A stretch of 64,000 bases of DNA from an uncultured Gammaproteobacteria bacterium. GTDB lineage: Bacteria > Patescibacteriota > Microgenomatia > Levybacterales > UBA12049. Both the position numbers and the translations under genes were made by a program. Location: NCBI GenBank assembly GCA_964497535.1, contig CAZCCG010000002.1, positions 169,297 through 233,296 on the forward strand, in the 5' to 3' direction. Position 1 is the first letter of the stretch. The number at the start of each line of letters is the position of its first letter. Below, piece by piece: positions 4,902 to 63,250 of this stretch. The notes under the pieces are model-generated. The model was not told the origin of the DNA. It made no database searches and saw only the letters and a program-made list of their open reading frames with translations.

Positions 4902-4960
4902 AGTGCCTCATTTTTTTTGATCTCTTGCATACTATGCTTTCTTCATTTATACTGCTTCTA

Positions 4961-5080: not shown

Positions 5081-6184
5081 ATGAGAAATTATTTTACTTC
5101 AGAGTCCGTATGCGCAGGACATCCTGACAAAGTATGTGACCAAATAAGTGACGCAATTGTTGATGATGTTCTCTCCCAAGATAAAAACGGTAAAGTCGCA
5201 ATAGAAACACTTGTTACCCAAAACCAAATCACAATAGCCGGAGAAATAAAGGCTCATGCCAAACCTAATTTTAAAAAAATAGCCCGACGAGAAATAAAAA
5301 GACTCGGTTATACACTCCCAAAATTAAAATTTACTTCAAACTCTCCCATTTCTTTGTTTGTCCATGCACAGTCACCCGAAATCGCAGTTGGTGTTGAAAA
5401 AAAAGGAGCCGGGGATCAGGGAATGATGTTTGGGTATGCCTGTAAAGAAACCAAAGAATACATGCCGCTTCCGATTATGCTTGCCCATGCCCTCTGCCGC
5501 CAAATTGATACCCTGAGAGAGTCAAAAAAACTGCCATATTTGCTACCGGATGGCAAAAGCCAGGTAACAGTTCGCTATCAAAAAGGCAAACCCGTTGCAG
5601 TAGATCGGGTAATACTGGCTGTTCCCCATAGTGATATGGTACAACTCCAGCAAGTAAAGCACGACATTTACAAACAGGTTGTTATACCGATACTGCAAGA
5701 ATACGGATACAATACACATGAAAAAGATGTCCTGGTAAATGGGACGGGTGTCTGGCATTTCTCCGGTCCCGCAGCTGATACAGGAGTAACAGGCAGAAAG
5801 ATTGTTGTGGATACCTATGGAGGGTATGCCAGAGTTGGGGGAGGAGCCTTTTCAGGAAAAGACCCAACCAAAGTTGATCGCTCAGGAGCATATGCTGCCA
5901 GGTATTTAGCAAAAAATATTGTTGCTCATGGATTGGCGCAGCAGGCAGAGGTACGACTGGCATATGTTATTGGTAGAGCAGAACCGCTCATGCAAGAAGT
6001 TGAAACATTTGATACCAATACCGTTTCACAAAAAGCACTCATAGAATTTATGAAAAAACTCCTCGATTGTTCGGTAGAAGGCATTCTCAAGGGTCTTGCG
6101 TTACAACAACCTCTTTACCTACCTTGCGCAGCATACGGACATTTTGGAAGGTCACAGTTCCCCTGGGAAAAAATCGTGAAATAA
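5081..6184 (+). CDS. metK: S-adenosylmethionine synthetase
   Basis: MRNYFTSESVCAGHPDKVCDQISDAIVD matches the MetK N-terminus; the GAGDQG motif is present; the ATG at 5081 is preferred over the ORF-track TTG at 5027, which would read through the riboswitch. Confidence 0.9.
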   Translation: MRNYFTSESVCAGHPDKVCDQISDAIVDDVLSQDKNGKVAIETLVTQNQITIAGEIKAHAKPNFKKIARREIKRLGYTLPKLKFTSNSPISLFVHAQSPEIAVGVEKKGAGDQGMMFGYACKETKEYMPLPIMLAHALCRQIDTLRESKKLPYLLPDGKSQVTVRYQKGKPVAVDRVILAVPHSDMVQLQQVKHDIYKQVVIPILQEYGYNTHEKDVLVNGTGVWHFSGPAADTGVTGRKIVVDTYGGYARVGGGAFSGKDPTKVDRSGAYAARYLAKNIVAHGLAQQAEVRLAYVIGRAEPLMQEVETFDTNTVSQKALIEFMKKLLDCSVEGILKGLALQQPLYLPCAAYGHFGRSQFPWEKIVK

Positions 6185-9085: not shown

Positions 9086-10519
9086 TCAAGGAGTTATTTT
9101 TGTAGGGGATTTGCTCACTGTTGGTTTTTGTACATAATTTTTACCAATAACAATGAGAAGATCATAGGGAGAATTAGAATTCTTCTGACCCATAGCTACC
9201 TCTGCGTTAAATTCTGTCTGTAATGACTGTATGACCTTTTTATCTACATTAGAAATAGTATAGATTTTTGTTCTGGTGAGTGACTGATCATCAAAAGTAC
9301 CGGGAGGTAATACTGAATACTTTTTTGTTTTCAATTCATTGACAGCTAACAGTGCAAGACCGGGAGTTTTCGTCCCATTATCAACTTGGATAACCGGATC
9401 AGTAATAATACTGTTGGGATTTAACGAAAAGGCAATCCATTTATGAATTGAGTCCCATTGTCCGATACCGCTTCTGGGCATCAGGATGGATTGTTTGTCA
9501 TCAGAAAATCCATCGGTGAGATAATTCTGGTCTGTCAATGCTAAATTTTTGATCGTATAGTTTTTAAAGACATTTGATTGCTTGAGAAAAAATTCTACAT
9601 CCTGTAAGGACATATCCGTACGAAAATCTTCACCTAAGGATGTCATAAAAGGTATGATTTTTGTAATAAATCCAATATCAAATACGCGCTGTTTTACCGC
9701 AACCAAAAGATTTCTCTGGCGCTTTGCCCTACCAAAATCAGTACCATCCTGAAGAGAATGGCGAGACCTCGTATATTTGAGTGCCTGTGTTCCATCCATA
9801 TGTTGCAGTCCTTTGTCAAAATGTAAATGTTCATACCGGCAGGGGAAAATCTCCGATTCATCCATGGTAGCACTGCCTGTCGCAAGTTCTGCTGAAAATG
9901 ACGCTATCTCAGTATCACTATGTCCACATGGCTCTGTCTCTTTTCCTTCAATGGGATATGAATAATCATCAAAAGCTGTCTCAACATTAATATTTACACC
10001 CTCCAATGAATCAATCGTATGCTTGAATCCGTCAAAATCAATCGCGACAAAGTTATCAATCGGCATCCCGACTACCTGTTCTACCGTCTTTTTTGCCAGG
10101 TCTCCTGCCCCAGCTTCACCTTTATACTGATCAGGTTTATTGGGATAATTACGATCGTCCATACCAATCTGATAAGCCGTATTGATCTTTTGATTTGATA
10201 ACCCTTCAATAGGAAGTTTTACCCATAAATCCCGGGGAATTGAGATAAGCGTTACTATCTTATTTTGGGAATCAACATGAGCAACTATAATAGAATCTGT
10301 TAGATAGGTGCCATCATGGTTTCCTCCTCCATAGCCGAGCATCAAAATGTTAAAGGGTTTTTTATTGGTAAATTTTTCCTGAAGATTATCCAGTTTTGGG
10401 GCAGAAGCTGAAGTATTTTTAACAAAGATCTTGTTGGAGACGTCTTTTGTTTTAAAATAGAGATACACCCCGCCTCCCATGAATAAAAGAAGCAGTATTA
10501 TGGCTACAATTTTTTTCAT
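9086..10519 (-). CDS. LytR-CpsA-Psr (LCP) family cell-envelope polymer transferase
   Basis: N-terminal TM, then FNILMLGYGGGNHDGTYLTDSIIVAHVD...LISIPRDLWV, the LCP domain core. Confidence 0.8.
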   Translation of the reverse strand: MKKIVAIILLLLFMGGGVYLYFKTKDVSNKIFVKNTSASAPKLDNLQEKFTNKKPFNILMLGYGGGNHDGTYLTDSIIVAHVDSQNKIVTLISIPRDLWVKLPIEGLSNQKINTAYQIGMDDRNYPNKPDQYKGEAGAGDLAKKTVEQVVGMPIDNFVAIDFDGFKHTIDSLEGVNINVETAFDDYSYPIEGKETEPCGHSDTEIASFSAELATGSATMDESEIFPCRYEHLHFDKGLQHMDGTQALKYTRSRHSLQDGTDFGRAKRQRNLLVAVKQRVFDIGFITKIIPFMTSLGEDFRTDMSLQDVEFFLKQSNVFKNYTIKNLALTDQNYLTDGFSDDKQSILMPRSGIGQWDSIHKWIAFSLNPNSIITDPVIQVDNGTKTPGLALLAVNELKTKKYSVLPPGTFDDQSLTRTKIYTISNVDKKVIQSLQTEFNAEVAMGQKNSNSPYDLLIVIGKNYVQKPTVSKSPTKITP

Positions 10520-14418: not shown

Positions 14419-15738
14419 TTAGGGGATGAAGGATTTCAGAAGATTAACAACTTTTTTAACCATCTTTCCGCTTGGCATACCTCCAAGTCGTGGCATAGAA
14501 AATCCGAGAGGAAGTGACTTACCACCGCCGGTATCTTGTTTTGCCCCGTAAATCAAAAGCCCGACTCCTGCTGAAAAAGCAGGGCTATTGATCTCATCAA
14601 TCAAACCCTTTAGACCGGTTGGCATACCGACTCGTACCGGCATCGCAAGCATTCGCTTGGCAGATTCTGAAATTCCTACTGTCAATGATCCCCCACCTGT
14701 TATTACTAACCCTGCAGGAGTTTGACCTCCATATCCGCTCTTTTTAATCTCAAGTCCAATCATTGTGAATATTTCATTTAGTCGTGGGCGTATAATACCG
14801 TCAACCAATGTTTTTCGGGAAACCTTGTGTAATTCTTCAGGAAGTTCCAATACACCCAAATCTACTTCATCACTGATGGATGCCAAATCAGCCCGCTTCA
14901 CGGTACGACCCATCATCGTTTCTTCTGTATCTTCCGGCATGACAATTTTTTTCTGTGGCTCAGACAAAAATAATTTGATTTTCTCAGCACTTTCCAGAGA
15001 AAGCCGTAAACCGATTGCCAAATCATTGGTAATATGACGAGCACCAATAGGCAGAACTGAAGAATATGCAATTGCTCCATCAACATAAATAGAGATATCG
15101 GTAGTTCCCGCTCCCATATCTACCAAAACTACCCCTAATTCCTTCTCAGTATCGGTAACCACGGCAAGACTACTGGAATATCCACTAAATACGATACTAT
15201 CCACATCTACTCCTACTTGTGACAGTGCTTTTTCAAGATTACGCAAAGCAGTACTGCTTGCTGTTATGATATGGGTATCTACCTCCAACCGTACCCCTGT
15301 CATGCCAATCGGATCTTTGATACCATCTTGCCCATCTACCGAATAGTTACGCGGCAGTACGTGGATAATTTCTCGTGTTGAAGGCAATGAAATGGCTCGA
15401 GCAGCATCTATAACGCGTTCAACATCGTTACTGATAATCTCTCCATCAGGCTTGGAAACTGCTACAACTCCATGAGAATTTTGGCTTTCAATATGACCGC
15501 CACCGATAGAAGCCGTAACATGAGCCACAGAATAACCGGCCATTCGCTCCGCAGCTTCGATTGAGGAATTTATTGCAGCTACTGCTTCTTCAATATCAAC
15601 GATTTGTCCTTTTTTTATTCCTAAGGCTCGAGTCTCTGCAACTCCCAAAACATTGATTTCTTCATCAATTTTGGCAATTATCGTAACGATTTTCGAGGTC
15701 CCAATATCAACTCCAACAACTATCTTTCCATCTGTCAT
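14419..15738 (-). CDS. ftsA: Cell division protein FtsA
   Basis: Actin-fold N-terminus IVVGVDIGTSKIVTIIA; 439 aa; position upstream of ftsZ. Confidence 0.92.
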   Translation of the reverse strand: MTDGKIVVGVDIGTSKIVTIIAKIDEEINVLGVAETRALGIKKGQIVDIEEAVAAINSSIEAAERMAGYSVAHVTASIGGGHIESQNSHGVVAVSKPDGEIISNDVERVIDAARAISLPSTREIIHVLPRNYSVDGQDGIKDPIGMTGVRLEVDTHIITASSTALRNLEKALSQVGVDVDSIVFSGYSSSLAVVTDTEKELGVVLVDMGAGTTDISIYVDGAIAYSSVLPIGARHITNDLAIGLRLSLESAEKIKLFLSEPQKKIVMPEDTEETMMGRTVKRADLASISDEVDLGVLELPEELHKVSRKTLVDGIIRPRLNEIFTMIGLEIKKSGYGGQTPAGLVITGGGSLTVGISESAKRMLAMPVRVGMPTGLKGLIDEINSPAFSAGVGLLIYGAKQDTGGGKSLPLGFSMPRLGGMPSGKMVKKVVNLLKSFIP

Positions 15739-21795: not shown

Positions 21796-23433
21796 TTATG
21801 CTTTCCTCACTTTCGTCACAATAACGCGGGGAATACCTTTTCCCATCATCACACTAATATCACCTTTTTTTGTATTGTTTACAACAAAATCAGTAATCTC
21901 CTCTATTGTTCCCGTTTTCACTTTACATTCCCCTTTTCCATCAGTAATTCCCTGAGTAATTTCTTTGTAAAAGTTTTTATTGACGAGAAAGAGATAATCG
22001 CATATAACAGAGATTGCTTTTGCAACTCTATAGTGTTCTTCTTTTCCTTTTTTCCCAAGTTCAATCATTGGTTCCAATATGAAAATTCTCTTGCCTTTAT
22101 ATTGCTTTATATACTCAAGCGTTGCAATCACACTATCAGGATTTGCATTAAATGTATTATCTAAAATATGGGATCCGTTTGAAAGTTCACTTCGAACCAT
22201 CGTATGAGGCAGCGGCGTTAGCTTGGATACGGCTGTTTTTATTTCCATATCGGACATTCCCAAATAGTCAGCTAGATAAATAGCGGGAAGAATATTTTCA
22301 ACCATATGGAGCCCAATCAATGATGTTTTTAAATGCAGTATTTTTTTTCTCAACTGCACATCAAAGTGAGTTCCATCCTCCTGGCCAGAGATATTATAGG
22401 CAACAATGTCCCCCAATTTCCCTACATTTGTTAATACTGTCTTTTTTGCCGATGATATAACTCTCCGATAGAGGACTTTTTTCTTTGTTGTATTTTTGTA
22501 TAGTTGAAAAACACGTTCGTTATTTCCGTTAAAAAGTGCCAAACCGTTTCTAGGAAGCGATTCAATTAATTCATATTTGGTTTTTTCTATATTTTCAATA
22601 CTTCCAAACAATGATAAATGTTGGCCTGCTATTGCTGTAAGTACACCGATTTTAGGACGGGCAATTGCACACAGCTCCGCGATTTCTCCTTTTTTATACG
22701 CTCCCATTTCTGCCACAAATATCTGAGTATTATTTTTTAATCCTTTCAAAATAGTATATGCTACCCCGATTGGAGTATTATCGGAATACTTTGTTTTTAA
22801 TACCTCGAATTTATGGGAGAGAACCTGGGCAATAAATTCCTTGGTAGAACTTTTTCCATAGCTGCCGGTAACTCCAATTACTAACAACTTTTCACTTTTT
22901 AAAATTTTTTTGGTTGCCCGCTCAATCTGGTAATCCTTGTAAAGCACCGTCGGCAAGGATACCGCAAAAACAACACATCCAACAACAAAAGGCAAAAGAA
23001 TATCCAAAATCATTAACCATACAAATGGATCTGTAGTAAGAGGAATGAGAAACAATGTAGTATAAATGTAAATTACTATCCCAATTAAAAGAAGCGCTTT
23101 TGTAGTAAATTTCGGACGCCGGAATGTATGAGTTAACAGTTCGTGGATAACCGCAACTCCTTCAATGAGTAATACAAGAGTAACAACTATTTGATAGAGT
23201 ACGAGAAAAAGTGGGTTATATACTGCAAATGCAAATCCTAATATCAGAATCCATTTGAAAATCGCATAAAATGAAAAAAGAATACTCTTACCACTGTGCG
23301 TTTCTGAAAGCTCTGCAAATAGCCGATCATACCGGTATTCCCGCCGTTGCCATAAAGACACCCAAAAAAAGGTGTTGCGTACTACCCATAAGAGAAAACT
23401 GACTGCGGCAATATAATATAAAACAGTAATCAT
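21796..23433 (-). CDS. murF: Mur ligase family protein (MurF-like D-Ala-D-Ala adding enzyme) with ~170-aa N-terminal polytopic membrane domain
   Basis: C-terminal two-thirds has the Mur ligase P-loop VIGVTGSYGKSSTKEF; the N-terminal ~170 aa contain 4–5 hydrophobic helices. Confidence 0.7.
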   Translation of the reverse strand: MITVLYYIAAVSFLLWVVRNTFFWVSLWQRREYRYDRLFAELSETHSGKSILFSFYAIFKWILILGFAFAVYNPLFLVLYQIVVTLVLLIEGVAVIHELLTHTFRRPKFTTKALLLIGIVIYIYTTLFLIPLTTDPFVWLMILDILLPFVVGCVVFAVSLPTVLYKDYQIERATKKILKSEKLLVIGVTGSYGKSSTKEFIAQVLSHKFEVLKTKYSDNTPIGVAYTILKGLKNNTQIFVAEMGAYKKGEIAELCAIARPKIGVLTAIAGQHLSLFGSIENIEKTKYELIESLPRNGLALFNGNNERVFQLYKNTTKKKVLYRRVISSAKKTVLTNVGKLGDIVAYNISGQEDGTHFDVQLRKKILHLKTSLIGLHMVENILPAIYLADYLGMSDMEIKTAVSKLTPLPHTMVRSELSNGSHILDNTFNANPDSVIATLEYIKQYKGKRIFILEPMIELGKKGKEEHYRVAKAISVICDYLFLVNKNFYKEITQGITDGKGECKVKTGTIEEITDFVVNNTKKGDISVMMGKGIPRVIVTKVRKA

Positions 23434-32919: not shown

Positions 32920-33028
32920 AATGGTAATGTATCAAATTGTATTTTTTATATTATAGCTGAAATACCGACACCGTGCAGACTTGGAAAACCCTTCGTAATA
33001 CCAAAAAATCACCGTCGGAAAATAAAGC

Positions 33029-33060
33029 GGGCAAGGAACAGCCTACACTATTCCTTGCCC
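33029..33060 (-). terminator. Hairpin (10-bp stem GGGCAAGGAA/TTCCTTGCCC, 12-nt loop) downstream of island gene, weak U-run
   Basis: Read directly; lies 31 nt downstream of the minus-strand stop at 33092. Confidence 0.4.
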
Positions 33061-33091
33061 AGTGAGAAGATTGAAACCACTCAGTGGCTGA

Positions 33092-33781
33092 TCACCCCTT
33101 GACAGAATCTTTGTTGGAAGACAACAAACCTACTCTAGTCATCTCGGTATGGAACCGCATCCATCCATCATCAGTGTTAAGCCTGAGCTCTTCATACAAC
33201 TCTCTTAGCCCACCAGATATAGTTTCACGATCCAGGCTTCCTTCTCGTAGCGCTATCAACCGGTCGACACCGGTCAGAAGCTGTTGTTTGAAAATAGGGT
33301 GCGTTTCACTTCCAAGAGTTGCTTTCTTCTCAAGTATCTTGAGTAGAAAACGCTTCACCGAAGGTGAAACTCCCAATTGTCCTCCCCGTATTCGTGGCTT
33401 TCTCGGGTTAGTTCTAGTTCCCCTTTTGCGAACGTCAACGGGCTGGGGACGTGGACTGGAAATGGCCTGTTCTTGAAACGCCCGCCGGGCAGCCTGGTGT
33501 TCCTCAGGCAAAAGCTGATCGTCAAGAGCATGCAAAACCCCTGATGCCTGAATTGTTACAACTGATAATCGTACTTCTACAGAAGTGATTACTGACAAAG
33601 CCAGATATAGGGTTTCCCTTATCTCAGTATCACTAAATATCCTTTCTTTGTATCGTCTCAGCTGCATTAGTGTAGGATTTAGATTGTTGGCTACCTGAGT
33701 AAGGTGGTCAGCGTGCTCAAGCAGATCTTTTTGGAAAGCTTCAAGTTGTCTCATTGCCTCATCCACCAACGTTACAGACAT
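33092..33781 (-). CDS. Hypothetical protein (229 aa), GC-rich island
   Basis: High-GC ORF, Arg/Pro-rich central linker; no homology recognised. Confidence 0.5.
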   Translation of the reverse strand: MSVTLVDEAMRQLEAFQKDLLEHADHLTQVANNLNPTLMQLRRYKERIFSDTEIRETLYLALSVITSVEVRLSVVTIQASGVLHALDDQLLPEEHQAARRAFQEQAISSPRPQPVDVRKRGTRTNPRKPRIRGGQLGVSPSVKRFLLKILEKKATLGSETHPIFKQQLLTGVDRLIALREGSLDRETISGGLRELYEELRLNTDDGWMRFHTEMTRVGLLSSNKDSVKG

Positions 33782-34030
33782 GAGTACCTCCTTCTGTCAT
33801 ACCCTCCACGTTTTATCAGAAAGTGTGTTGGTTTTCTCCTCTCACTTGTAAATGTACCCTAAACCACAAAGCCAAAACACAAGGTTTTGGCAGCAGTTAT
33901 ATGTGAAAATCTCTCACTGGTATCAATCCGTATTGATGCCAGAATCAAGATTGTGAGAGAGGGTCTTGATAGATATCTTCCTCAAACGTCAAGCCGCATA
34001 TATGGCTTGTGTGTGGAAAGTATCTTGGGT

Positions 34031-34063
34031 GGGTTGGGGCCGAGTCTAACTCGGCCCCAACCC
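34031..34063 (-). terminator. Very stable GC hairpin (14-bp perfect stem GGGTTGGGGCCGAG/CTCGGCCCCAACCC, loop TCTAA) without U-tract
   Basis: Read directly; 16 nt downstream of the minus-strand stop at 34079; resembles U-tract-less terminators of high-GC bacteria. Confidence 0.5.
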
Positions 34064-34078
34064 GGATATGTAATGCAG

Positions 34079-34825
34079 TCAGGACGCTTTGTTCCTGCCG
34101 CTGGGCAAAACGACACCCCACTGCCTGAGCAGTTTGATGAAGTTGCCCTCGCCCATGCTGCGCACTACTTCCCGCAGAGAAGCAGCATCCCGGCTAACCG
34201 GTGCATCTGAGGTCAAGCAGACTAAGGCACTGCGTAAATCCCGGCAGATGACGCTCGCCTGCTTATCAGCGATATCGTCACCAACCACGATATCCACCAG
34301 ACCGTACTGACCTTTAACAGCCAACCGCACGATATGGGTACGCCACCCCTGACCGTACATCAGCTCCATTACCGCCTCCATGCTCTTGGGAAGCGGTTTG
34401 TTACCCCGATGCATCAGGATCTTTCGAAGGATGGAGCGAGCCAACAGCGGAATCCCCTTCGTCCGTTGCGGGATAGCAGGAGTTACTGCTGGCGCGGCCA
34501 CCGGTGGGGCAGGGGGAGCCGGCGGAGAGACAGGCGGTGTCACGGAACGACCTCCGCTCTGCCTGGCTCGGGAAACTGCATGATGAGGCGCAGACGCGGT
34601 CCCCAGATCATACTGGATCTCCGATAGTGCCCGCTGCGCTTCACTGATTGCTGCAGAAAGTTGACGTGCACTACGGCGACCCTTCTGAGGTCGCTCAACA
34701 AGTGCGAGAACCTTCTGTGCCGCCACATGGTAGCGTTGACTCTCTGCCTGAAGCTGAGCCGCGATACTACGCAGCGGCCTGAAAGTCTTCTCCTCAAACA
34801 ACGATACATCTGGCTTGGCCATCAC
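34079..34825 (-). CDS. Hypothetical protein with Pro/Ala-rich linker (PPAPPAPPVAAPAVTP) and C-terminal ~110-aa domain, GC-rich island
   Basis: High-GC ORF; no homology recognised. Confidence 0.5.
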   Translation of the reverse strand: MMAKPDVSLFEEKTFRPLRSIAAQLQAESQRYHVAAQKVLALVERPQKGRRSARQLSAAISEAQRALSEIQYDLGTASAPHHAVSRARQSGGRSVTPPVSPPAPPAPPVAAPAVTPAIPQRTKGIPLLARSILRKILMHRGNKPLPKSMEAVMELMYGQGWRTHIVRLAVKGQYGLVDIVVGDDIADKQASVICRDLRSALVCLTSDAPVSRDAASLREVVRSMGEGNFIKLLRQWGVVLPSGRNKAS

Positions 34826-34916
34826 TTCTTCCTTCCACTATTCGTAGGAGACATGGCGCGATGCCATATCTCATGGAGGTTTGGTAACACTCCCCATCCA
34901 CATCAGAGGATCCTTT

Positions 34917-36872
34917 CTAGCGCTTGCGGCCGCTCGGCCGACTGACGCGCTGCTTCGACCTCCCATACAGGAGGAAGGCATTGCGATGATGCTCAGCTGG
35001 ATCCCGGGTCGGCAAGGTGACCTCAGTCACCGCCATAGCGGCACTGAGCATAACCAGGTCCCGCTGCTGTTCGATATCTCGAGCAGCGATAGCAGCAGCC
35101 AAAGCTTCTGCTTCCTGGTTTACGATTACCCAACCCAGATCCATTTCATCGACGCTATACGGCTTGTCAGGATCATCCAAGGGGGAAATCCGAACCCGTA
35201 TAGAAGGATGTAGGTGAACCTCCTCAGGAGAAGGAGTCCTCTTGGGTAAACCTGTCTCGATGTAGAAGGTGGCTCTGTGGCCAGGATCCAGAGGAGACAG
35301 GTAGAAGGTGATACTGTTGCGGCCGCTCACCTTAAAGGGTGGCGGGACCGTAACTGAAACCACATATTTCCCATGCGGCTTCTTCCCGTAGGTGATGCGT
35401 CCTCCTTCCTGGGTTACCCTGACAGGTTCCCCTTCCAGGAAGATACGCACACCCATGACGGGTTGACCCCACTCATCAATCGCCCTGATGATCACTCGAT
35501 CTGACAGGGGATCAATTGGTGGGTCTACGATAACTCCTTTCTCTTTCCTCCGGCGAGTCTCTTTCCGAGTCTCACCGGGACCGGGGACCAGGAGGGCATC
35601 TCTAAAGATGTCCATTTCTCCCATGGCTTCGGTAATCGCATTCCCCACGTCTTCGCCGACCTTGTGGATCTGCTCGTCGTTTTGTCGGCGGCGAATCTCC
35701 TCAGAGGCCTTTTTGATCTCCGGCTCGAGCTTCTTCAGCTCATCTACCAGAAGATCAAGAATCTCAGACGGCTGGGGAGCACTCTTGCGAGAGTTCCATG
35801 GAAAGACAGTGTCAGGCAAGTCGGGCGCGCTGACAAACCCGTTCAACTCAGTCCATGGGGGACTATTGAATTGAGGCAGACTTGTCAAGTCGTTCACCCG
35901 GGACCCGGCCCGACGCAGGTCAAGCTGATGTTGCCCGCGCTTTACTTCAACCTCCAGATAGAGATCCACCTCGAAGGTAATATCAGTTCCATACAGACGA
36001 AGTGTCCGATGAGGAATGATATTCACACCCCGATACTTGGTAGCCTCTACCGGGATGATGCGTCCGGTCTTGGTCTTACGACCTTCCTCGGACACTCGAT
36101 CCACGATGACAAGCCGCAGCCGGTCAATCCGGATATCTTCGCTGAAGCGGCTGGAGAATGCGTCCCTGAGCAACCACGGCCGCAGGGCAGCTTCTACCCG
36201 ATCTTTGAACTCAACAACTTCTACTTGAGTCCCGGATCGAAGTTCTTTACCGGTTTCCGGATCCCTCAGGACTACATCCACCTCTTCAATTGTATATTTG
36301 CGGTCGTTGACTGCTAACATCTCTGCAGTTGGCGCTACGAGAAGACAGGTAGGGACCTCCCAGGGATGGAACTTCCGACCCCAGAATTCCTCTGCCATGT
36401 CAACTGTCGCCCTCGTGTACCATACAGCCCGGTTCCCTATGGAAGTGAATCCTAGGATACCCAAGCCCTTGGTTCCTCGTACCCGCTTACGCGGCTTATG
36501 CCGCTTAAATGAGTATGCGGCACTCTGCATCATCATCTTAAAGGACTTCCAGGAGAGCTCGTGCTTGATCTCATCAGCCAGACTGAGGCTGTGGGCGGAA
36601 GGGACACCTTTTTTGATGTCCTCCAGAAGCATATCGAACAGAAGGTTATCGTCAGGCATGAGCGACGGCACCAGGCCATGCCCATTGCCTACGACGATGA
36701 GCTTACCTGGTTCTGTGATCACCCAAACGCGGTCGGCACCGGCATCGATTTCATTCTCAACCAGTTCCGCCGCGGCATCAATCGGCGAATCGTACAGTGC
36801 GCCGTGATGCAACATGGAGGCGCCGGGATTGATTTCCGCCGTCCCCTCATAGCGTTGGTAGCGTTGGTTCAT
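34917..36872 (-). CDS. GHKL-superfamily ATPase (MutL/MORC-like HATPase_c at extreme N-terminus) with C-terminal carboxypeptidase-regulatory-like beta-sandwich region
   Basis: N-box AAAELVENEIDAGA (ExxxNxxDAGA, as in MutL VKELVENSLDAGA), G1 VVGNGHGL, G2-like GTKGLGILGFTS; C-terminal IFLEGEPVRVTQEGGRITYGKKPHGKYVVSV pattern. Confidence 0.65.
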   Translation of the reverse strand: MNQRYQRYEGTAEINPGASMLHHGALYDSPIDAAAELVENEIDAGADRVWVITEPGKLIVVGNGHGLVPSLMPDDNLLFDMLLEDIKKGVPSAHSLSLADEIKHELSWKSFKMMMQSAAYSFKRHKPRKRVRGTKGLGILGFTSIGNRAVWYTRATVDMAEEFWGRKFHPWEVPTCLLVAPTAEMLAVNDRKYTIEEVDVVLRDPETGKELRSGTQVEVVEFKDRVEAALRPWLLRDAFSSRFSEDIRIDRLRLVIVDRVSEEGRKTKTGRIIPVEATKYRGVNIIPHRTLRLYGTDITFEVDLYLEVEVKRGQHQLDLRRAGSRVNDLTSLPQFNSPPWTELNGFVSAPDLPDTVFPWNSRKSAPQPSEILDLLVDELKKLEPEIKKASEEIRRRQNDEQIHKVGEDVGNAITEAMGEMDIFRDALLVPGPGETRKETRRRKEKGVIVDPPIDPLSDRVIIRAIDEWGQPVMGVRIFLEGEPVRVTQEGGRITYGKKPHGKYVVSVTVPPPFKVSGRNSITFYLSPLDPGHRATFYIETGLPKRTPSPEEVHLHPSIRVRISPLDDPDKPYSVDEMDLGWVIVNQEAEALAAAIAARDIEQQRDLVMLSAAMAVTEVTLPTRDPAEHHRNAFLLYGRSKQRVSRPSGRKR

Positions 36873-38638
36873 TAAAACCCTACCTCCTTCATGACTCTGA
36901 TGCGGTCTTCTCGAACCACTCCCTGTTTTACCAGGATTTCCAGAAGCTGGATAACGCCGTTCATAGCGCTTCCATGCTCCCTTCGGAGTTGATCTCGTGT
37001 AGCAGGATCATCAGCCTCCATATACTCTCGCAAGAGTGCTTCAAGACTGCTTAACGTTACCGCAACATCGCTTCCCTCTGTATGAGCCTTCCTCCTTCTG
37101 AGGCGCTCCTCAAATGCTCTTCCTTCGAGCATCTGTTGCAGACTTGTTACCGCGTTGTGTATCTGACCCAAACGCTCTGCCTGCTCGTGCAGTAACTGCT
37201 CGCGCATCTGTGCAAGATCTTGTTGGATTTGGGCTCGAATGGCTTCGTTATCTGCTGCTCGTTTTCCTCCCATAGCTAAAACTACCACCTCTGTTAAGGT
37301 TCTTGATATCTCAGCACCAATTTGCTGAGATAGTGCATGGACGAGGTTATCGATATAACCTCCTACCAAACCCCCTACAGAAGAGGATAACGATGGTACA
37401 GATGGTTCTAGTACAACCGCCTCTTCCTCCGATGGTGGCGGGAGTCGGTCTTCAGACGGTTCTTCCTCTTCGCCACTCTCGTCTCCAAGAGACGCGGGTG
37501 CAGAATCTACGTCCTCCCCATCCTCCGGGTTCTCCGACTTTTTCTCTAGCCACTCCTGATATTCTTGCTCCGACCAGGCTCGCTTCACTTCGCGAAAACC
37601 TTTTCCGTGTGCCACCCAGATAGGGGGCAACGTACAGGGATCCGCAAGTGGTAACCGGCTCAGCCGGTGGATGTTGGCGTAGTGCTCTGTGTTGAGTACA
37701 TCTTCGCCGTGGATGATCTTGTGCCATGTCCCCAACGGTATACCAGCTTCGTGTGCAAAAACCGTCAGTGACGTACCACGATTGGCAGGAATCCACTCCC
37801 GCAAATCGTGCATCAGGTCCTGGGCAAATGTCGGTGGAGGCGGTTGCTCTTGTAAAGCCAGCCACTCCTCCAATCGTTGTTCTGTCCACGCCCGATGAAT
37901 CAGGATGTGTTTCCTGTTATCCCGAGGACCAACTTGTGAAGGTCGGCCAGGGATAATCGTCGGCCGGGATTGTGGCAACCTCGTGAGGCGGTATATACGA
38001 GCATAGTACTCGTAGTCCTCCGCTTCAACGATAGACTCGCCGTAAACAACCCGCTTGAGCACATTCCAGGGTACTTCCAGCTCAGCAGACAACCTCTTGT
38101 TATCGTATCCGTGCTCACCCATCCAGGCGAGAATCGCCGTGGAAAGAGCTGCACGGAACTGCTGCGGAGTCAGCTCTTCCGATGAAGAACCACTCCTTGC
38201 AGCTGCAACTGCGGACGCTTGGTCCATGTCCACCTCCTCTTCAGTTCCTCCCTGTTGTGTGCTTCCTAAAACAGGACCTGCAGACGCAGCTTCCTGCTTA
38301 CGATTCTTCTCTAGCCACTCCTGATATTCTTGCTCCGACCAGGCACGGACTTTCCCCGACAGTATTCCACCTCTTCGCACATGTGAATATGCAATCGGTA
38401 GCCTACTCGGGTCAGCCTCTTGTATACCAAAGTCGTGATGAAGCCTGGCATAGACATCTGTTGCATCCAGGATTGCCCCTGCGGTAAGCAGCAGCTTTCC
38501 TTCGGCTTCAGATACCCCAAGCTCCTCGAAGAAATCTGGCTCAGATCGATGCTCTTTCTCAAGCATCTCCAGTACAGCAAAGGCAACCTTTTCTGCCCAC
38601 TGCTGTTCCTCGGTGGTAAACGCCAAGTTGACGTTCAA
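36872..38638 (-). CDS. Hypothetical protein with three tandem ~120-aa repeats (each ending R-A-W-[ST]-E-Q-x-x-x-E-W-L) and C-terminal coiled coil; translationally coupled to the GHKL ATPase gene
   Basis: Protein-level repeats RAWSEQEYQEWLEK (x2) and RAWTEQRLEEWLALQ; 37-nt perfect DNA repeat at 37543–37579 and 38308–38344 (765 nt apart, in frame); its stop overlaps the downstream start at 36872. Confidence 0.55.
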   Translation of the reverse strand: MNVNLAFTTEEQQWAEKVAFAVLEMLEKEHRSEPDFFEELGVSEAEGKLLLTAGAILDATDVYARLHHDFGIQEADPSRLPIAYSHVRRGGILSGKVRAWSEQEYQEWLEKNRKQEAASAGPVLGSTQQGGTEEEVDMDQASAVAAARSGSSSEELTPQQFRAALSTAILAWMGEHGYDNKRLSAELEVPWNVLKRVVYGESIVEAEDYEYYARIYRLTRLPQSRPTIIPGRPSQVGPRDNRKHILIHRAWTEQRLEEWLALQEQPPPPTFAQDLMHDLREWIPANRGTSLTVFAHEAGIPLGTWHKIIHGEDVLNTEHYANIHRLSRLPLADPCTLPPIWVAHGKGFREVKRAWSEQEYQEWLEKKSENPEDGEDVDSAPASLGDESGEEEEPSEDRLPPPSEEEAVVLEPSVPSLSSSVGGLVGGYIDNLVHALSQQIGAEISRTLTEVVVLAMGGKRAADNEAIRAQIQQDLAQMREQLLHEQAERLGQIHNAVTSLQQMLEGRAFEERLRRRKAHTEGSDVAVTLSSLEALLREYMEADDPATRDQLRREHGSAMNGVIQLLEILVKQGVVREDRIRVMKEVGF

Positions 38639-38862
38639 CGCAACCTCCTTCTTTTCTGTTTCCAGTTATCGTATAAGGTATTACATATACCCTCTCTCAC
38701 TTTTCAATGTGCTTTTTTATTCCATGGTAAAACCATTTGGGCACTCTATGCCCGCAGGTCAAAACATGGATAAGAATTATACTATAAATTGCATCTTGTA
38801 GTAAAGTCAGCAAGAGGCTAATCGATTCCCGGGAATATTCAAGAAGAGATCTTATAATACAA

Positions 38863-54906: not shown

Positions 54907-57900
54907 TTAATCTACTTCAAATATAGTGTAGTTTTTATCAAAAGTAAAAATGTAGTTATTGTAAGGAGATGCTGTCTGTGCTTCCGATTTTTTTTGTTTT
55001 GCTTGCGAGATAGTTTCAGATTGGATAATATTAAGACTCGTATCTCTATAAACAAACCATACCCCGTCTGAAAGGCCTACCGGCAAAACCCATGCTTGTC
55101 CTTGTTTAATTGGTACATTTACAAACTGTAATGTTGTATGGACAGGAAACTGAGGGTGTTCAATTCTCAAAGCAGTGAGTGTATCTTGTGTAATAATTCC
55201 GGCTTTTTCCCAATCATTTTTTTGAATATTCAACTCATACCGGTAAAACATCCCTAATAAAATAACAATCACAAAAAGGACTAAGACAAGATGTGATTGT
55301 TTTTTCAAGAATACTGTTAAAAACACATGTAACGCACCCATGACCAATAGGATATAACCAATACTTGAGAAATATGCAAGATTTGGCATAACTATCCCAA
55401 ACGCCAAATAAGGAACGAGAGCAATCAAAAATACACTCATTGCAAAAACAAAGATTCTACGAAACTCCGCATCTGTTCCCTTCCTTTTTCCAAACGTGAG
55501 TAATGCTGTTCCAAGAATAAGTATCCCTATGATAATCCCAACAAATGGCTGAACAACCACCAATAGAGCAAGATAGCTTCCTAAGGTAGGAAGGATATTT
55601 TGTAGAGTATAAGGGACTCCCAATAGTAGTGGCACTCCTGCATGCTGATGGATCAGTAAATATACGGCAATAGCTACAAAGAAAGGTATATATCCAACAC
55701 AGATACTTTTTATATTTCTTCCTTTTGAGAAGATACCATCATAAGTAATAAGCAAGAGTGGAAAAATAAGTGATGAATCATTTGAAAAAAGTGCCAGAAT
55801 CATAAAAACAAGACTGATCAAATAAGAAATCGCTGATTTGGCATCCGTATATTTTATATAGAAATACAATCCATATACGATAAAGAGTACCGATAGGTTA
55901 ACAGGTAATGTCGAAATCCAGAAAATATTCTCACCATGTAACGGTAAGAGACCAAATAAGAATGCAGCAGCAAATCCCCATACCTTACTCTTGAAGAGTT
56001 TAGCAATAAGAAGAAAAACACCAAATGTAATCAACAAGTGAGTCAGAAGTGAAAAGAGATGGTAACCTTGAGGTTGAAGCGAGAAAACTGTATAGAGTGC
56101 GAACATCACCGCTTTAGCAATAGGATTATAAAAACCTGCAGAAATACCGGTAAAATAATGAGGCACATCAGGGAAATTAGATGATGCTGCCAAACGAAGC
56201 CAGATGAAATCCTCACCTACGAAAAAGTTATTAATACTGGGCATAAATACAACCATTATTATTACCAGTAAATAAAAGAAGATCAAAATATTTGATGAAA
56301 ATATTTTTTTCAAATAGAAAATGTAATCAATTTTTTTCTTTTTAAATAGATAGACAACCCCGGCCCCAATCCCGAGTAATATCCACAAGTTTTCAGCTAC
56401 TTTTGAAGCTTCAAATACATCAATAAAAAGGGCATTTACCAAAAGACCTACTACTCCCCCACAAATACCCCATACATAAGCCTGTGGATAATCTGTTTCT
56501 GACAACTCATGCCTATATACATAGAGCAAGATTCCTAATATTAGGAATATCGAAAAAAATGTCAGTAGTCCCAAAAATCCTGACTCTCCCATAAATCTTA
56601 AGTAATCTCCATCCGTAGCCAGAGTAATTGTTGAGAATCCACTTCCCAAGGGGGGAAAACGCAGAAATGCCCTCCAGGCATTTGGCCATTCTGCTTGAAA
56701 CCGTGTTGTAAACGATATGTCATACACCAAAGCCTTTTGAATAAGAAAGCTTCCTGAAACGGTAGATATCTCAACCCCACCATATTTAAGTTTTAGTCTT
56801 TTTGCTTCTTCTGCCGCTATTTTAGACTGGATCACCGCCGATGTAGTTGAAACAGGAGCCTTTGATTGAGGAACGACTATAAAGGATGAACCGGCAGGAA
56901 GATTTTGTGTTGGTGGTGCCGAACCTACCACAACGGGATTTTTGCTTATTCTATTTTGAAGCTCTGTCGGAAGGGTTGAAATGGTTTCCCCAACTACCTG
57001 CCCCTGGTTATTCGTTACAATTGAGGTCAACCGAATGGTATCTAAAAACCTCTTGGCGGTTGATCCGCTAAACAAAAGTAACAAAGAAAAACTGATAATA
57101 AGAATCGGGGGGATAAACTTTTTCTTTTTGGCAAAAACAAGTGCTGCTATCATCCCAACAATATACGCAATAAATGATACACGGGAAGCAGTAAAGATAA
57201 GAAGCATCAGAGCTCCCATGGAAAGAACCAACATTCCCAAACGCGCATACCACTTTTTAAGCATAAGAAAGAGAAGTATCAGAACCGGAATTACGAGTAC
57301 TAAATATGCTGCTAAATCATAATGCCCTCCAAATGTCGAGGTAATTCGACCATCAGGAGGAAGACATAATGGGATTCCTTTGGCAAATTCTTCATTTCCT
57401 GTTTGGAAAGAAGGAAAACAAAATGGATATTTTTCAAAAAATTGAGGAAATTTAGCCCAAAAAAACAGGTAGCTTCTTTGCCCTATCCCGTAGATTACTA
57501 CTCCCGCGATTGCTATGCAAAACACAATAAGATACTGCTTTAAAATCTTTGTTGATGTAATTGTTGAAAAGGCTACAAAAAAGAGAATCATATACTCAAG
57601 TCTACGAAGATACTGCAGAATTGAGACATGAGGAAAAAAATTAGCAATCGTTGGACCAATTAAAATAAGGCCTACTAACAGAGATCCCAATGCACAAATC
57701 CAATAAATACCAAATGGCATGGCCAAAGCAACAGGTATGTGAACTTTTTTCCGCAGCAGCTGAATAAGCCATACTCCTACACTTGTCGCAATCAGAAAAT
57801 CTTCCAAGCGAATATACACCCAGGTTCTTTCAATATGGATACTGGGTAATTTGGGGTATAACGGAATAAAAACGAGTAATAATAGGACTAAGATTCTGAG

Positions 57901-57936
57901 TAGATTTTGGTCAAGAAAGTGTAAGAGCCTCTTCAT
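54907..57936 (-). CDS. Very large polytopic membrane protein (1009 aa); probable O-antigen ligase/polymerase-like domain fused to a GT-C/YfhO-like domain
   Basis: More than 20 hydrophobic segments in two blocks separated by a ~150-aa hydrophilic region; glycan-cluster context. Confidence 0.45.
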   Translation of the reverse strand: MKRLLHFLDQNLLRILVLLLLVFIPLYPKLPSIHIERTWVYIRLEDFLIATSVGVWLIQLLRKKVHIPVALAMPFGIYWICALGSLLVGLILIGPTIANFFPHVSILQYLRRLEYMILFFVAFSTITSTKILKQYLIVFCIAIAGVVIYGIGQRSYLFFWAKFPQFFEKYPFCFPSFQTGNEEFAKGIPLCLPPDGRITSTFGGHYDLAAYLVLVIPVLILLFLMLKKWYARLGMLVLSMGALMLLIFTASRVSFIAYIVGMIAALVFAKKKKFIPPILIISFSLLLLFSGSTAKRFLDTIRLTSIVTNNQGQVVGETISTLPTELQNRISKNPVVVGSAPPTQNLPAGSSFIVVPQSKAPVSTTSAVIQSKIAAEEAKRLKLKYGGVEISTVSGSFLIQKALVYDISFTTRFQAEWPNAWRAFLRFPPLGSGFSTITLATDGDYLRFMGESGFLGLLTFFSIFLILGILLYVYRHELSETDYPQAYVWGICGGVVGLLVNALFIDVFEASKVAENLWILLGIGAGVVYLFKKKKIDYIFYLKKIFSSNILIFFYLLVIIMVVFMPSINNFFVGEDFIWLRLAASSNFPDVPHYFTGISAGFYNPIAKAVMFALYTVFSLQPQGYHLFSLLTHLLITFGVFLLIAKLFKSKVWGFAAAFLFGLLPLHGENIFWISTLPVNLSVLFIVYGLYFYIKYTDAKSAISYLISLVFMILALFSNDSSLIFPLLLITYDGIFSKGRNIKSICVGYIPFFVAIAVYLLIHQHAGVPLLLGVPYTLQNILPTLGSYLALLVVVQPFVGIIIGILILGTALLTFGKRKGTDAEFRRIFVFAMSVFLIALVPYLAFGIVMPNLAYFSSIGYILLVMGALHVFLTVFLKKQSHLVLVLFVIVILLGMFYRYELNIQKNDWEKAGIITQDTLTALRIEHPQFPVHTTLQFVNVPIKQGQAWVLPVGLSDGVWFVYRDTSLNIIQSETISQAKQKKSEAQTASPYNNYIFTFDKNYTIFEVD

Positions 57937-61061: not shown

Positions 61062-61280
61062 TTATCGTTTCTTTAGACCCACAATATATAATAGTATAGC
61101 CAATAAAAAAAATCCCGCTGCATACCATGTGAGACGCTCTGCTGTGAAAAAAATCCATTTTGCAAAAAGAGGAATGGAAAAGAGGAGACACAACAATCCA
61201 GCTGATACTAATAAATATCTCTTATGGATACCAACGAGTATGATTGCTGTAATAATAAATATTATATCCTGTATTTTCAT
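61062..61280 (-). CDS. Small membrane protein (72 aa, 2 TM)
   Basis: Hydrophobic ORF whose start overlaps the stop of the upstream gene. Confidence 0.4.
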   Translation of the reverse strand: MKIQDIIFIITAIILVGIHKRYLLVSAGLLCLLFSIPLFAKWIFFTAERLTWYAAGFFLLAILLYIVGLKKR

Positions 61281-63250
61281 GTTTTTTTCTTGTTACTCTT
61301 CAGCGCTATTATCATAATAATCCATAGTATGAAACTAATACAACTTATGAATAACCCAATATTTATTATTTGCTGAGGTTGATAATAAACTGTAGCTGTA
61401 TAATCACCATCTCTTTGGATAGTGAAGCTATTCAGCCGGTTATTATAAATCCTGGCAGGCTGGGAAATATCATTTGTTTTCATCATCCAATTTTTATCAA
61501 AATTTTGGGAAAAAACTACTTGGTCACCTTTTTTTACATTCTCAAAATGGAGGATATATTCTGTAGGATTCATTCTGGTATAGGTAATCTTTGATAAAGA
61601 TCCGGGAATCAAAAATTGAGAATAATATTGCTGGGTTTCATATATGACTATTTTCCCAATTCTCTTTTTTGCTTTTAGAGCTGGTATTTGATCAAGGCTA
61701 TGTACTGTATTTTGGTACATAGTTGGATCATATGTATTATCTCTGATAAAGATTGTCCCTAAACTGTCATAAGGAACAATAATATATCTTACTCCCAATT
61801 CTTTTAGTAAATTGTACGACCCGGGGTCGGATAATATTTTTACTACTTCACTTAATGAATTTGTCTTATAAAGTCCATAGGCATTCAAAGCCGGATGTTG
61901 AGGGGAATTATAAAAAAATTTCTGTAGTGAAGGTACCCATAATGTTCTATAAAAATCAGGATCTTTACTAATATAATTTTTTAACTGAATATATTCAGAG
62001 GGTAATTCATATGGTTTAAAAAGTCCGCTCAACTGTCCCATCCACAAAGGACGATATAAAACAACCATATAAATAACTACAAATAAGAGGAGTATTTTCT
62101 GCCATGGGATATTCTTTTTTTTCACATGATATGTAATAAATTCACTCCATAACACAATACCTAGAGGTATAAGCACTGCATATGCCAATGAAATAACGCT
62201 ATAGAACTTCATGGGATCGCGGAACATATAAAAACCGGGTATGTGGCTAAATAAAAATAAATAGAGTTCTCCAAAAGGAGGATTCGCTCCTTTTCCCAAA
62301 AAACTTCCTATCAGTGCCAGAAAAGCAAACAATAAAATGAAGAATTTTGTTTTTCGCTGTAGTAGTTTACTGCTTTCTATAAATAAGAGTACCGAAAAAG
62401 ACATAAAGGGAATAAATAAAAATTCAGGTTTCATAAAGGATACTTTGCCAAAAATATTTGTCGGCCAATTTGCTTGTAATAGCGAAAATGAATTTTCAAA
62501 TTGAGCAAAGCTAAAAAAACGCACAGCCTGTAAACTGTTATATGCCGACCCCAATTGTTCCACAGGATTTTGTCGATATACAATAAGCGGCAAAATCCAA
62601 AATAAATCAAGTACGAAAATTGAAATGAAAGGGATAACAATTCCATATATAAAAATAAGTTTTATTGATTTCATTTGGAAATCTTTCATAATCACGAACA
62701 GATAATAAAGTACAACCATCAGAAAGGTAATATATGCTATCCGTGGATCGAATATAACTTGAAGACTTGCAAGTAATCCCGCAAATAAAGAATTCCGCAG
62801 TAATATAAGGTGAGAAGATTGATTTTCCTCATATGGCAGGGTTTTTATAAACCGTGCCAAAACGAATGGGGCAAATGAATACGAGAATAAAATTCCCAAC
62901 TGTCCACCGCCAAAAGTCATTAAAAAATACGTATTAAAGATATAGATTAGTCCTGCCAAAAACGAAAGTGGAACCGTGGGGAAAAGGGCTTTATACAAAT
63001 ATCTTGCAGAAAAAAAAGTGATAATCCATGGAGGAATAAACCAGAAAATAATACTTACAATATTCCAAGGAATACCAAGACTACTTATCCAGGCAGTAAA
63101 ACCAAGATAGGTATCAATACCCAGCGTGCCAAAAGAAGGCATACCCAAACCATTATTTAAATAGGAATCCCAACCGGAAGGAAAATGAGTCAAATAAGAA
63201 ATAGCTTCTTTCCAGAAAAACGGCCAATCATTGGCAACTAAAACAATCAT
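61277..63250 (-). CDS. Large polytopic membrane protein (YfhO/GT-C-like), glycan assembly
   Basis: 657 aa, ≥12 TM, large C-terminal extracytoplasmic domain; context. Confidence 0.5.
   Translation of the reverse strand: MIVLVANDWPFFWKEAISYLTHFPSGWDSYLNNGLGMPSFGTLGIDTYLGFTAWISSLGIPWNIVSIIFWFIPPWIITFFSARYLYKALFPTVPLSFLAGLIYIFNTYFLMTFGGGQLGILFSYSFAPFVLARFIKTLPYEENQSSHLILLRNSLFAGLLASLQVIFDPRIAYITFLMVVLYYLFVIMKDFQMKSIKLIFIYGIVIPFISIFVLDLFWILPLIVYRQNPVEQLGSAYNSLQAVRFFSFAQFENSFSLLQANWPTNIFGKVSFMKPEFLFIPFMSFSVLLFIESSKLLQRKTKFFILLFAFLALIGSFLGKGANPPFGELYLFLFSHIPGFYMFRDPMKFYSVISLAYAVLIPLGIVLWSEFITYHVKKKNIPWQKILLLFVVIYMVVLYRPLWMGQLSGLFKPYELPSEYIQLKNYISKDPDFYRTLWVPSLQKFFYNSPQHPALNAYGLYKTNSLSEVVKILSDPGSYNLLKELGVRYIIVPYDSLGTIFIRDNTYDPTMYQNTVHSLDQIPALKAKKRIGKIVIYETQQYYSQFLIPGSLSKITYTRMNPTEYILHFENVKKGDQVVFSQNFDKNWMMKTNDISQPARIYNNRLNSFTIQRDGDYTATVYYQPQQIINIGLFISCISFILWIIMIIALKSNKKKT

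Follow-up and report, generated by a model that had tools for sequence, protein, structure and literature searches.

Clamp-forming ATPases of the GHKL type, among them MutL, MORC, Hsp90 and the type II topoisomerases, are central molecular machines, and eukaryotic MORC proteins neutralise transposons by ATP-dependent entrapment. The S5 domain of the MORC family carries the signature GhXhhpXXRhl (Iyer, Abhiman & Aravind 2008, PMC2292703). Prokaryotic ATPases that combine GHKL and S5 domains occur mostly in restriction-modification or defence operons, and the MORC/paraMORC operons encode a superfamily II (SFII) helicase, a DNA methylase and/or a restriction-fold, HNH or TIR effector (PMC2292703). 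Protection against phages has also been described for a GHKL-Shedu fusion (PMC12137116). Here we report on gene B, a genuine open reading frame (ORF) for a GHKL-type ATPase of 651 aa on the minus strand (34917..36872) of a 64,000-nt stretch of contig CAZCCG010000002.1, and on its neighbours A, C and D. The whole stretch is called the window below.

Gene B represents a previously undescribed, very divergent GHKL family, whose roughly 100 sequence clusters are without exception uncharacterised. In all five cassette loci compared (the window and loci L004, L007, L009 and L011) it lies between gene A upstream and gene C downstream; the three genes are co-conserved and translationally coupled, and the A-B-C module is compositionally foreign to its surroundings. 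We class gene B as representing a new GHKL family and its arrangement with the two partners as a new operon architecture. The first-pass annotation had overlooked the missing G1 Asp, the three-gene cassette, its foreign composition and its flanking DNA element. No description of the gene B family, of the A-B-C cassette or of a GHKL cassette in the candidate phyla radiation was found in the literature library searched, and the run accessions were not found there either.

Gene B and the described GHKL ATPases

When 1.84 billion cluster representatives were scanned in full with HMMER, 119 relatives of gene B were recovered at E<1e-3, 72 of them at E<1e-30. Most were full-length (620-680 aa), and identity to the query ranged from 21 to 37%. 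Conservation counts given below refer to the 72 aligned members. A word-indexed search of 5.8 billion proteins returned the query alone, and the same search with the family alignment as query returned MutLs only. Searched by itself, gene B matched MutL N-terminal models at E ~2e-3 (residues 23-68) and MutL in the PDB at E 0.04. Among the aligned relatives, HATPase_c_3 matched 60 at E<=0.01 (best 2e-12) and HATPase_c matched 31. The family profile reached the MutL N-terminal domain at 3e-8, Grp94, Hsp90 and MORC4 at ~1e-6, and SdrD, via the beta-sandwich domain, at 2e-12. The MutL, MORC_S5, HSP90, gyrase and DNA_mis_repair domains of Pfam had no match in any of the 72 members. No HisKA domain was found in gene B, which is a stand-alone GHKL protein, as the first-pass annotation of this DNA had stated.

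An AlphaFold2 model of gene B was built from six sequences. Its domain cores had a predicted local distance difference test score (pLDDT) of 70-93, and the N-terminal domain shows the Bergerat alpha/beta sandwich. In a Foldseek search full-length Hsp90s came out on top (E 2e-11), followed by MutL LN40 and MORC2/3; the alignments to the N and M domains of Hsp90 and to MutL LN40 ran over more than 400 columns, with template modelling (TM) scores of only 0.2-0.26 for Hsp90. The structure prediction that had been proposed as a check led to GHKL proteins. Because the family-level domain matches, the profile matches and the fold matches agree, the GHKL assignment is confirmed, and so is the fusion to a carboxypeptidase-regulatory-like sandwich that had been read from the sequence. 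These sequence and fold matches do not single out one GHL subfamily as the nearest to gene B.

The middle domain was modelled as beta-rich with pLDDT of 67-93, mostly 80-90. It is followed by helices at residues 370-424 and by a segment with pLDDT <50 at residues 427-456. The sandwich was recognised among the 72 members by SdrD_B (35), CarboxypepD_reg (21) and SpaA (10), and the last hundred residues or so (~555-651) are a possible constitutive dimerisation domain. Only the sandwich (residues ~456-525, to 625 in P0107) was matched by the giant proteins P0094 (4816 aa), P0107 and P0119, which contain as many as 17 copies in tandem; it is thus one of a class of surface-protein domains that are widely repeated.

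All N-box, G1-region and G2 motifs quoted by the first-pass annotation were present. Motif I, the N-box, reads E36-LVEN40-EID43-AGA, with E36, N40, D43 and A44 in place; the Mg-binding N40 is invariant in the family and D43 is found in 70 of 72 members. The ATP lid carries S121-x-K123 and G133-T-K-G136-L-G138 (GxxGxG, motif III), and G214-T215 forms motif IV. Conservation was 87-100% for G133, G136, G138 and G214-T215, and also at least 87% for K363, G64 (71/72) and G66 (72/72). Position 363, after the middle domain, is K or R in every member, and K363 is a candidate gamma-phosphate sensor by analogy with GHL ATPases, which place theirs at the same point.

A departure from the classical ATP site concerns the stretch V60-VGNGHGL67 (G62-N-G64-H-G66), which had been labelled as the G1 box. 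The letters are there; the box is not canonical, since the adenine-binding Asp is replaced by Gly62. We observed that Gly62 occurs in nine of the 72 members and Asp62 in 62. Position 41 is Glu or Asp in all nine Gly62 members and non-acidic in all 62 Asp62 members (A, G, S or C in 60 of them). The nine are scattered over the neighbour-joining tree of the family, so the swap apparently arose several times independently. The residue that follows the Mg-binding Asn of Hsp90 is Ser52 in the human protein; it lines the adenine pocket beside Asp93, and we take position 41 of gene B to correspond to it. Judged from these residue patterns, the adenine-binding carboxylate seems to have been relocated from G1 to Glu41, not lost by decay. 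Given the covariation, the function of the ATP site was probably maintained.

Gene B resembles the MORC/paraMORC ATPases in its N-terminal GHKL domain with motifs I-IV, in its lid of HATPase_c_3 type (S-x-K, GxxGxG), in the conserved basic residue contributed by the next domain, in its family-specific C-terminal extension and in a sporadic distribution suggesting lateral transfer. On the other hand, a regular-expression scan found GhXhhpXXRhl in only one of 72 members, which was not the query. No SFII helicase, methylase, endonuclease, HNH or TIR neighbour occurs in the five cassette loci, where the partners are an Xre-like helix-turn-helix (HTH) repeat protein and a coiled-coil protein. Gene B differs further in the CarboxypepD_reg/SdrD_B sandwich in its C-terminal half, and in part of its family, the query included, the G1 Asp has apparently moved to the N-box. 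With the S5 signature in a single member, no MORC_S5 match and none of the usual neighbours, the earlier label "MORC-like" does not hold as a statement of membership.

The closest sequence match of the N-box/G1 region (ELVENxxDAGA ... NGxG) is to MutL, and gene B shares with it a GT motif IV followed by VEV and a Lys beyond the middle domain that is comparable to MutL K307. However, the similarity is limited to ~50 residues, no member has DNA_mis_repair (PF01119) or MutL_C (PF08676), there is no linkage to mutS, and gene B scored 16.9 bits with TIGR00585 (cutoff 180) and ~17 bits with the NCBIfam MutL models (cutoffs 180-937). With Hsp90, HtpG and TRAP1, which gave the best Foldseek match over the N and middle domains, gene B has in common its overall length, a three-part N-M-C layout and a presumably dimerising C-terminus. 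The likeness to Hsp90 stays at the level of fold, with no match to HSP90 (PF00183), and Hsp90 has neither the beta-sandwich insert nor an HTH protein in the same operon. Topoisomerase VIB and GyrB/ParE differ from gene B in their QTK loop and H2TH domain, both absent here, and no Toprim, 5Y-CAP or TP6A match was found in A, C or D; gene C does have an invariant Tyr157 (compare the catalytic Tyr of a topoisomerase partner), known from only five sequences. The earlier opinion that the protein is too divergent and too long for MutL, GyrB or HtpG was correct in that it is not an orthologue, its best relatives being a separate full-length family, and mistaken as to length, which is similar to that of MutL.

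The A-B-C cassette and its conserved DNA element

Homologues of gene A matched each other across the loci at E 1e-8 to 1e-35. Homologues of gene C (226-264 aa) lie directly downstream of the ATPase gene in 5/5 loci, with weak BLAST similarity (E 5e-4 to 3e-8): four gene C homologues were linked, the one of the window only via L007 (E 5e-4) and that of L009 only over 31 residues. The start and stop codons of A and B overlap in all loci and those of B and C in two. In the window the ATG of gene B shares one base with the TAA of gene A (TAATG, in the context …GGGTTTTAATGAAC…), and a GAAGGAGG box stands 10 nt upstream of the ATG. Translational coupling to an upstream repeat protein, as the first-pass annotation had it, was therefore borne out.

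Gene A carries modules that resemble HTH domains of the Xre/lambda-cI type. Each module of ~110 aa was modelled (pLDDT 80) as four helices, a beta-hairpin and one further helix; the modules number one, two or three among the loci (three in the window) and lead into an acidic linker, after which comes a helical domain at the C-terminus. No HTH_3 match was found in Pfam. Compared with known Xre/lambda-cI regulators such as C-proteins, HipB and CapH, gene A is distinguished by its one to three tandem modules, each extended by the beta-hairpin and a 'RAWSEQEYQEWL' helix, by the long helical domain at its C-terminus, by the missing HTH_3 match and by translational coupling to an ATPase. A 44-nt repeat, 95% identical, lies inside gene A (37539-37582 and 38304-38347) and encodes RAWSEQEYQEWLEK. 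The HTH module count depends on the long assembly, because short-read contigs end exactly in the 44-nt copies.

In gene C, a coiled coil at the N-terminus is joined by a Pro/Arg-rich linker to a C-terminal domain of ~115 aa, with Y157, G158 and W161 invariant in five sequences. It had no match in Pfam or PADLOC and no sequence relative in the PDB, and the profiles of A and C gave nothing significant against PDB sequences. PADLOC, NCBIfam and PHROGs yielded nothing usable for A, C or D. ORF D had no family or domain match in library scans and no counterpart in the other four loci; its GC content at third codon positions (GC3), 0.41, is between the host and cassette values. A paralogy of D with A or C was ruled out by hhalign (probability <=0.2). 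Basic disordered linkers and tails occur in B, C and D.

The gene order in the window is mraZ-rsmH-ftsL-ftsI-[A-B-C-D]-murE-pgeF-murC-murB-murA, so that the island interrupts the dcw operon between ftsI and murE. Insertion sites differ from locus to locus; others include rpmE/prfA | rpsB-tsf and a site upstream of rpoB-rpoC. The island in the window (~5.7 kb, roughly 33000-38700) has a GC content of ~0.53, compared to 0.37-0.39 around it. The GC3 of the cassette exceeded that of its flanks in 5/5 loci: 0.56 against 0.31 in the window, 0.55 against 0.49 in L004, 0.39 against 0.30 in L007, 0.45 against 0.30 in L009 and 0.61 against 0.47 in L011. In L009 the shift covers A-B-C and spares the next genes. 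Such a composition is the signature of lateral acquisition.

Domain and tRNA scans found no integrase, transposase or tRNA near the cassette. There was no tblastn match of B or A to 50,697 phage and 72,556 plasmid records, and none in IMG/VR with the family-specific C-terminal half of gene B. The single IMG/VR match obtained, IMGVR_UViG_2524614854_000002 at 10001-10333 (28% identity to gene B residues 26-162), is probably an unrelated GHKL gene. A metagenome scan recovered just two cassette loci that were already known. One gene B relative is annotated in a metagenome-assembled genome of Candidatus Levybacteria, and one other cassette locus comes from groundwater; both are circumstantial hints of a Patescibacteria-like genome.

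Logan contigs from SRR9179563, SRR9179560 and SRR9179562 span both island junctions, and an assembly chimera was rejected because these independent contigs cross them. Three of the four contigs are exact substrings of the window; the fourth (L002, SRR9179562) is not so over its full length. Coverage ran over 46542→38315 and 37571→24917, with breaks only inside the 44-nt repeat of gene A.

A conserved DNA element of ~20 nt precedes gene A. Its block, G[CT]AC[AC]TTGACAAGTGAGAGAGG, was aligned in seven leaders from six loci and lies ~20-100 nt upstream of the gene A start in all six loci that have this region; the proteins at these loci are only ~30% identical, and the copies in L004 and L007 are much weaker than the others. 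Among 94 loci, the core ACAAGYGAGAGAG with at most one mismatch was found only in cassette loci and in one unrelated locus. Candidate sigma-70 promoters stand upstream of the element; TATAAT-type boxes comparable to that of the window were seen 60-100 nt upstream of it in L093, L009, L007 and L004. RNAalifold predicted 0 pairs, that is, no local RNA structure, for the element leader, and a locally folded RNA was dropped as an explanation. Rfam gave nothing in the island.

An inverted copy of the element core is located beyond gene C. We compared the unbiased best inverted match between upstream and downstream intergenic regions with 300 shuffles. The best match fell at the element in the window (12/12, to 38689-38700) and in L011 (14/14), with 0/300 shuffles as good in each, as well as in L009 (13/14, p 0.017). 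Across loci the inverted copy is situated 74-126 nt past gene C, beyond the hairpin; hairpins resembling the stem-loop of the window also follow gene C in L009 and L011. The two copies of a locus share local variants: AAGCGAGAG at both ends in L011, ...GGGT in the window and ...GGGA in L009. A third, direct copy stands before ORF D, at the same spacing to its start codon as the upstream copy has to gene A. Possible roles of the element are those of an operator for A, of paired terminal repeats or of a site for 5'-3' RNA pairing.

The coding DNA also contains a perfect 17-nt inverted repeat, AGCACTCTTGCGAGAGT, with one arm in gene A (37024-37040) and the other in gene B (35778-35794). Its chance expectation is about 1e-3 in 6 kb, and it resembles the element core (TTGCGAGAG). 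It was not seen in the other four cassettes and was rejected as a general cassette feature.

Feature coordinates and other observations in the window

The features of the island are collected in Table 1.

Table 1. Features of the A-B-C-D island, in order along the minus strand (positions in the window).
Feature	Position	Strand	Remarks
Sigma-70-like promoter candidate TTTACT-18-TATAAT, upstream of gene A	38776..38805	-	consensus match only
Conserved ~20-nt element, upstream copy GCACATTGAAAAGTGAGAGAGGGT	38689..38713	-	52-76 nt (core 56-72 nt) before gene A start codon
Gene A	36872..38638	-	588 aa, TTG start; HTH modules, acidic linker, helical C-terminal domain
Gene A, three tandem ~110-aa Xre/lambda-cI-like HTH modules	about 38294-38638, 37829-38176, 37514-37837	-	
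Gene B residues ~25-250, Bergerat-fold GHKL domain	36123..36800	-	motifs, profiles, fold model
Gene B residues ~251-368, beta-rich middle domain	35769..36122	-	ends at K363
Gene B residues ~369-457, long helices, then basic disordered linker	35502..35768	-	linker RKETRRRKEKG
Gene B residues ~458-540, beta-sandwich	35253..35501	-	CarboxypepD_reg / SdrD_B / CnaB type
Gene B residues ~555-651, C-terminal alpha/beta domain	34917..35210	-	conserved G580, N585, D599; basic tail
Gene C	34079..34825	-	248 aa; coiled coil, Pro/Arg-rich linker, C-terminal domain
Perfect 15-bp stem-loop	34031..34063	-	16 nt past gene C stop codon
Inverted copy of element core TTGTGAGAGAGGGT	33951..33964	+	115-126 nt downstream of gene C
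Third, direct element copy ACATTTACAAGTGAGAG	33839..33855	-	58-74 nt upstream of ORF D
ORF D, accessory gene	33092..33781	-	229 aa; GC3 0.41
Intrinsic-terminator-like hairpin	33028..33061	-	15 pairs and T-run, closing the island before murE

Nearly all genes of the window are on the minus strand, and no tRNA was found in the 64 kb. The gene ftsA (14419-15738) lies downstream of the dcw genes, and a second Mur-ligase paralogue is present at 21796-23433. An S-adenosylmethionine (SAM) riboswitch of the SAM-I/IV type at 4956-5061 (+) scored 44.2 bits, against a gathering score of 41.1. It stands immediately before the ORF for S-adenosylmethionine synthetase (5027-6184), whose listed start it overlaps. 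Two large ORFs, 54907-57936 (-) of 1009 aa and 61277-63250 (-) of 657 aa, had no Pfam match at E<=1e-5 and sit among glycosyltransferase and PMT-type genes.

Possible function of the cassette

We tentatively read gene B as the ATPase subunit of a horizontally acquired A-B-C module, inserted between ftsI and murE, with a probable conflict function; our confidence in this reading falls somewhat short of even. By analogy with MutL, MORC and Hsp90, B would be a dimer held together by its C-terminal part, and its N-terminal domains would close on ATP binding to form a clamp, with Glu41 supplying the adenine-binding carboxylate in place of the usual G1 Asp. Gene A would bind the conserved element, and in this way may autoregulate the operon and/or nucleate a complex on DNA. 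Gene C could serve as a coiled-coil adaptor that bridges or regulates, and the basic disordered segments of B and C might contact nucleic acid. The role would most likely be one in conflict, whether by defending against foreign DNA, by controlling it or by maintaining the module itself.

A number of observations weigh against this proposal. Library scans of A, B, C and D found no nuclease, methylase, helicase, TIR domain or membrane effector, so a defence mechanism would have to do without an executioner. PADLOC-DB v2 had no match for B, C or D; for gene A it gave a marginal match to PDC-M69A (E 0.005, 15 bits), with no stretch passing alone. While HATPase_c_3 was recognised in most relatives, gene B alone reached only 23.7 bits with it (E 5e-5, residues 111-169), below the cutoff of 25. 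The AlphaFold2 model was mediocre overall (pLDDT 68, predicted TM score 0.41), the ATP lid (residues 67-138) was not modelled, and an S5/transducer fold of the middle domain is no more than a candidate. The top rank of Hsp90 chaperones in Foldseek would fit a protein client, not DNA. At the catalytic-base position, residue 36, 40 of the 72 members have Glu and 28 have Gln, scattered over the tree; many members may therefore bind ATP and yet hydrolyse it poorly, and rates may differ widely. In L004 and L007 there was no significant inverted match, so the inverted copy was seen in 3/5 loci. Genomic context was available for 5-6 of the ~119 relatives of gene B.

The rival reading of a true anti-phage or anti-plasmid defence system of the MORC/paraMORC kind, in which B would sense or compact invading DNA and an effector would be hidden in C, D or the C-terminal domain of B, appears unlikely. 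It would agree with the preference of GHKL+S5 ATPases for restriction-modification or defence operons (PMC2292703), with the protection conferred by the GHKL-Shedu fusion (PMC12137116), with the Xre-type regulator gene upstream, as in many defence operons, with the foreign composition of the cassette and with a family that is sporadic, rare (119 clusters in 1.84 billion representatives) and only 21-37% identical to the query. However, no PADLOC match passed for the four proteins, partner genes for a helicase, methylase or nuclease are missing from the five loci, the family lacks the MORC signature, and no conserved acidic or His cluster suggestive of a nuclease was seen. The neighbours are housekeeping genes and not defence islands, and they lend no support to the defence context that the first-pass annotation had suggested. 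A somewhat less likely view is that A-B-C is a new autonomous module around a GHKL clamp, being either a mobile element that moves without a recombinase of any known class or an effector-less defence or silencing system acting by ATP-dependent entrapment of foreign DNA; in its mobile version, A would bind the inverted end-elements and B would be an ATP-driven factor for synapsis or target selection. We regard as decidedly improbable a mobile element proper, with the inverted copies as terminal repeats, A as the end-binding protein, B as a regulator or target selector (compare MuB, TnsC and IstB) and a catalytic function that escaped recognition. The inverted copies do bound the cassette, with locus-specific co-variation in L011, the window and L009; the change in GC falls at these same boundaries, the insertion site differs in every locus, integrases and tRNAs are missing from the vicinity, and the tandem HTH modules of A are organised like the DNA-binding arms of transposases. 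Yet DDE, HUH, Ser/Tyr recombinase and Cas1-like domains did not come up in library scans, inspection by eye showed no target-site duplication at the cassette boundaries in the window, and the inverted copy went undetected in 2/5 loci; the promoter candidates fall outside the repeat-bounded unit, no contig has multiple copies, and the cassette is absent from the plasmid, phage and IMG/VR collections searched.

CarboxypepD_reg/CnaB sandwiches usually mediate protein or glycan contacts. In an Hsp90-like protein-remodelling ATPase the sandwich of gene B would be a client- or partner-binding domain and A a mere transcriptional autoregulator. The best Foldseek matches were indeed full-length Hsp90, HtpG, TRAP1 and GRP94 (440-780 columns, E 2e-11), and the variation between E and Q at the catalytic base hints at ATPases that are slow and switch-like. 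Still, we find a protein client improbable: the TM-scores are only 0.2-0.26, Pfam HSP90 matched none of the 72 members, sequence profiles reach MutL before Hsp90, the lid with S-x-K and GxxGxG is of the HATPase_c_3, MutL/MORC type, and the HTH partner and the basic disordered linkers and tails of B, C and D indicate nucleic acid. A segregation or maintenance module, with A as centromere-binding protein, the flanking elements as its sites, B as motor or clamp and C as adaptor, would follow par-like logic (an autoregulated operon, an HTH protein, a nucleoside triphosphatase and repeated cis sites at the operon ends). It is very improbable, as we know of no GHKL-based partition system, and the cassettes are chromosomal, single and set amid housekeeping genes, with none on any of the 72,556 plasmids. 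Finally, the GC jump of 15 points, the missing canonical G1 Asp and the breaks of short-read contigs inside gene A might be taken for an assembly chimera or for a decaying ATPase that no longer binds nucleotide. Such an artefact or relic is scarcely credible and has been largely refuted: both junctions are covered by contigs from SRR9179563, SRR9179560 and SRR9179562, it is at a repeat of 44 nt and 95% identity that the contigs break, all ORFs are intact in the five loci, and the Gly62/Glu41 covariation argues for a maintained function.

With respect to the ATP site, the family raises the question whether the Bergerat fold can carry its adenine-binding carboxylate on the N-box helix instead of in the G1 box, and the covariation in nine out of nine members suggests that it can. 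With respect to the cassette, the question is what a trio of HTH, GHKL and coiled-coil proteins without a recognisable effector does to DNA; the family combines a fixed pair of partners and a conserved cis element with clear marks of lateral transfer into core operons of small, low-GC genomes. The diversity of prokaryotic GHKL proteins is the presumed source of the eukaryotic MORC silencing factors. If the A-B-C module is indeed a defence or mobility system, it would represent a new mechanistic class.

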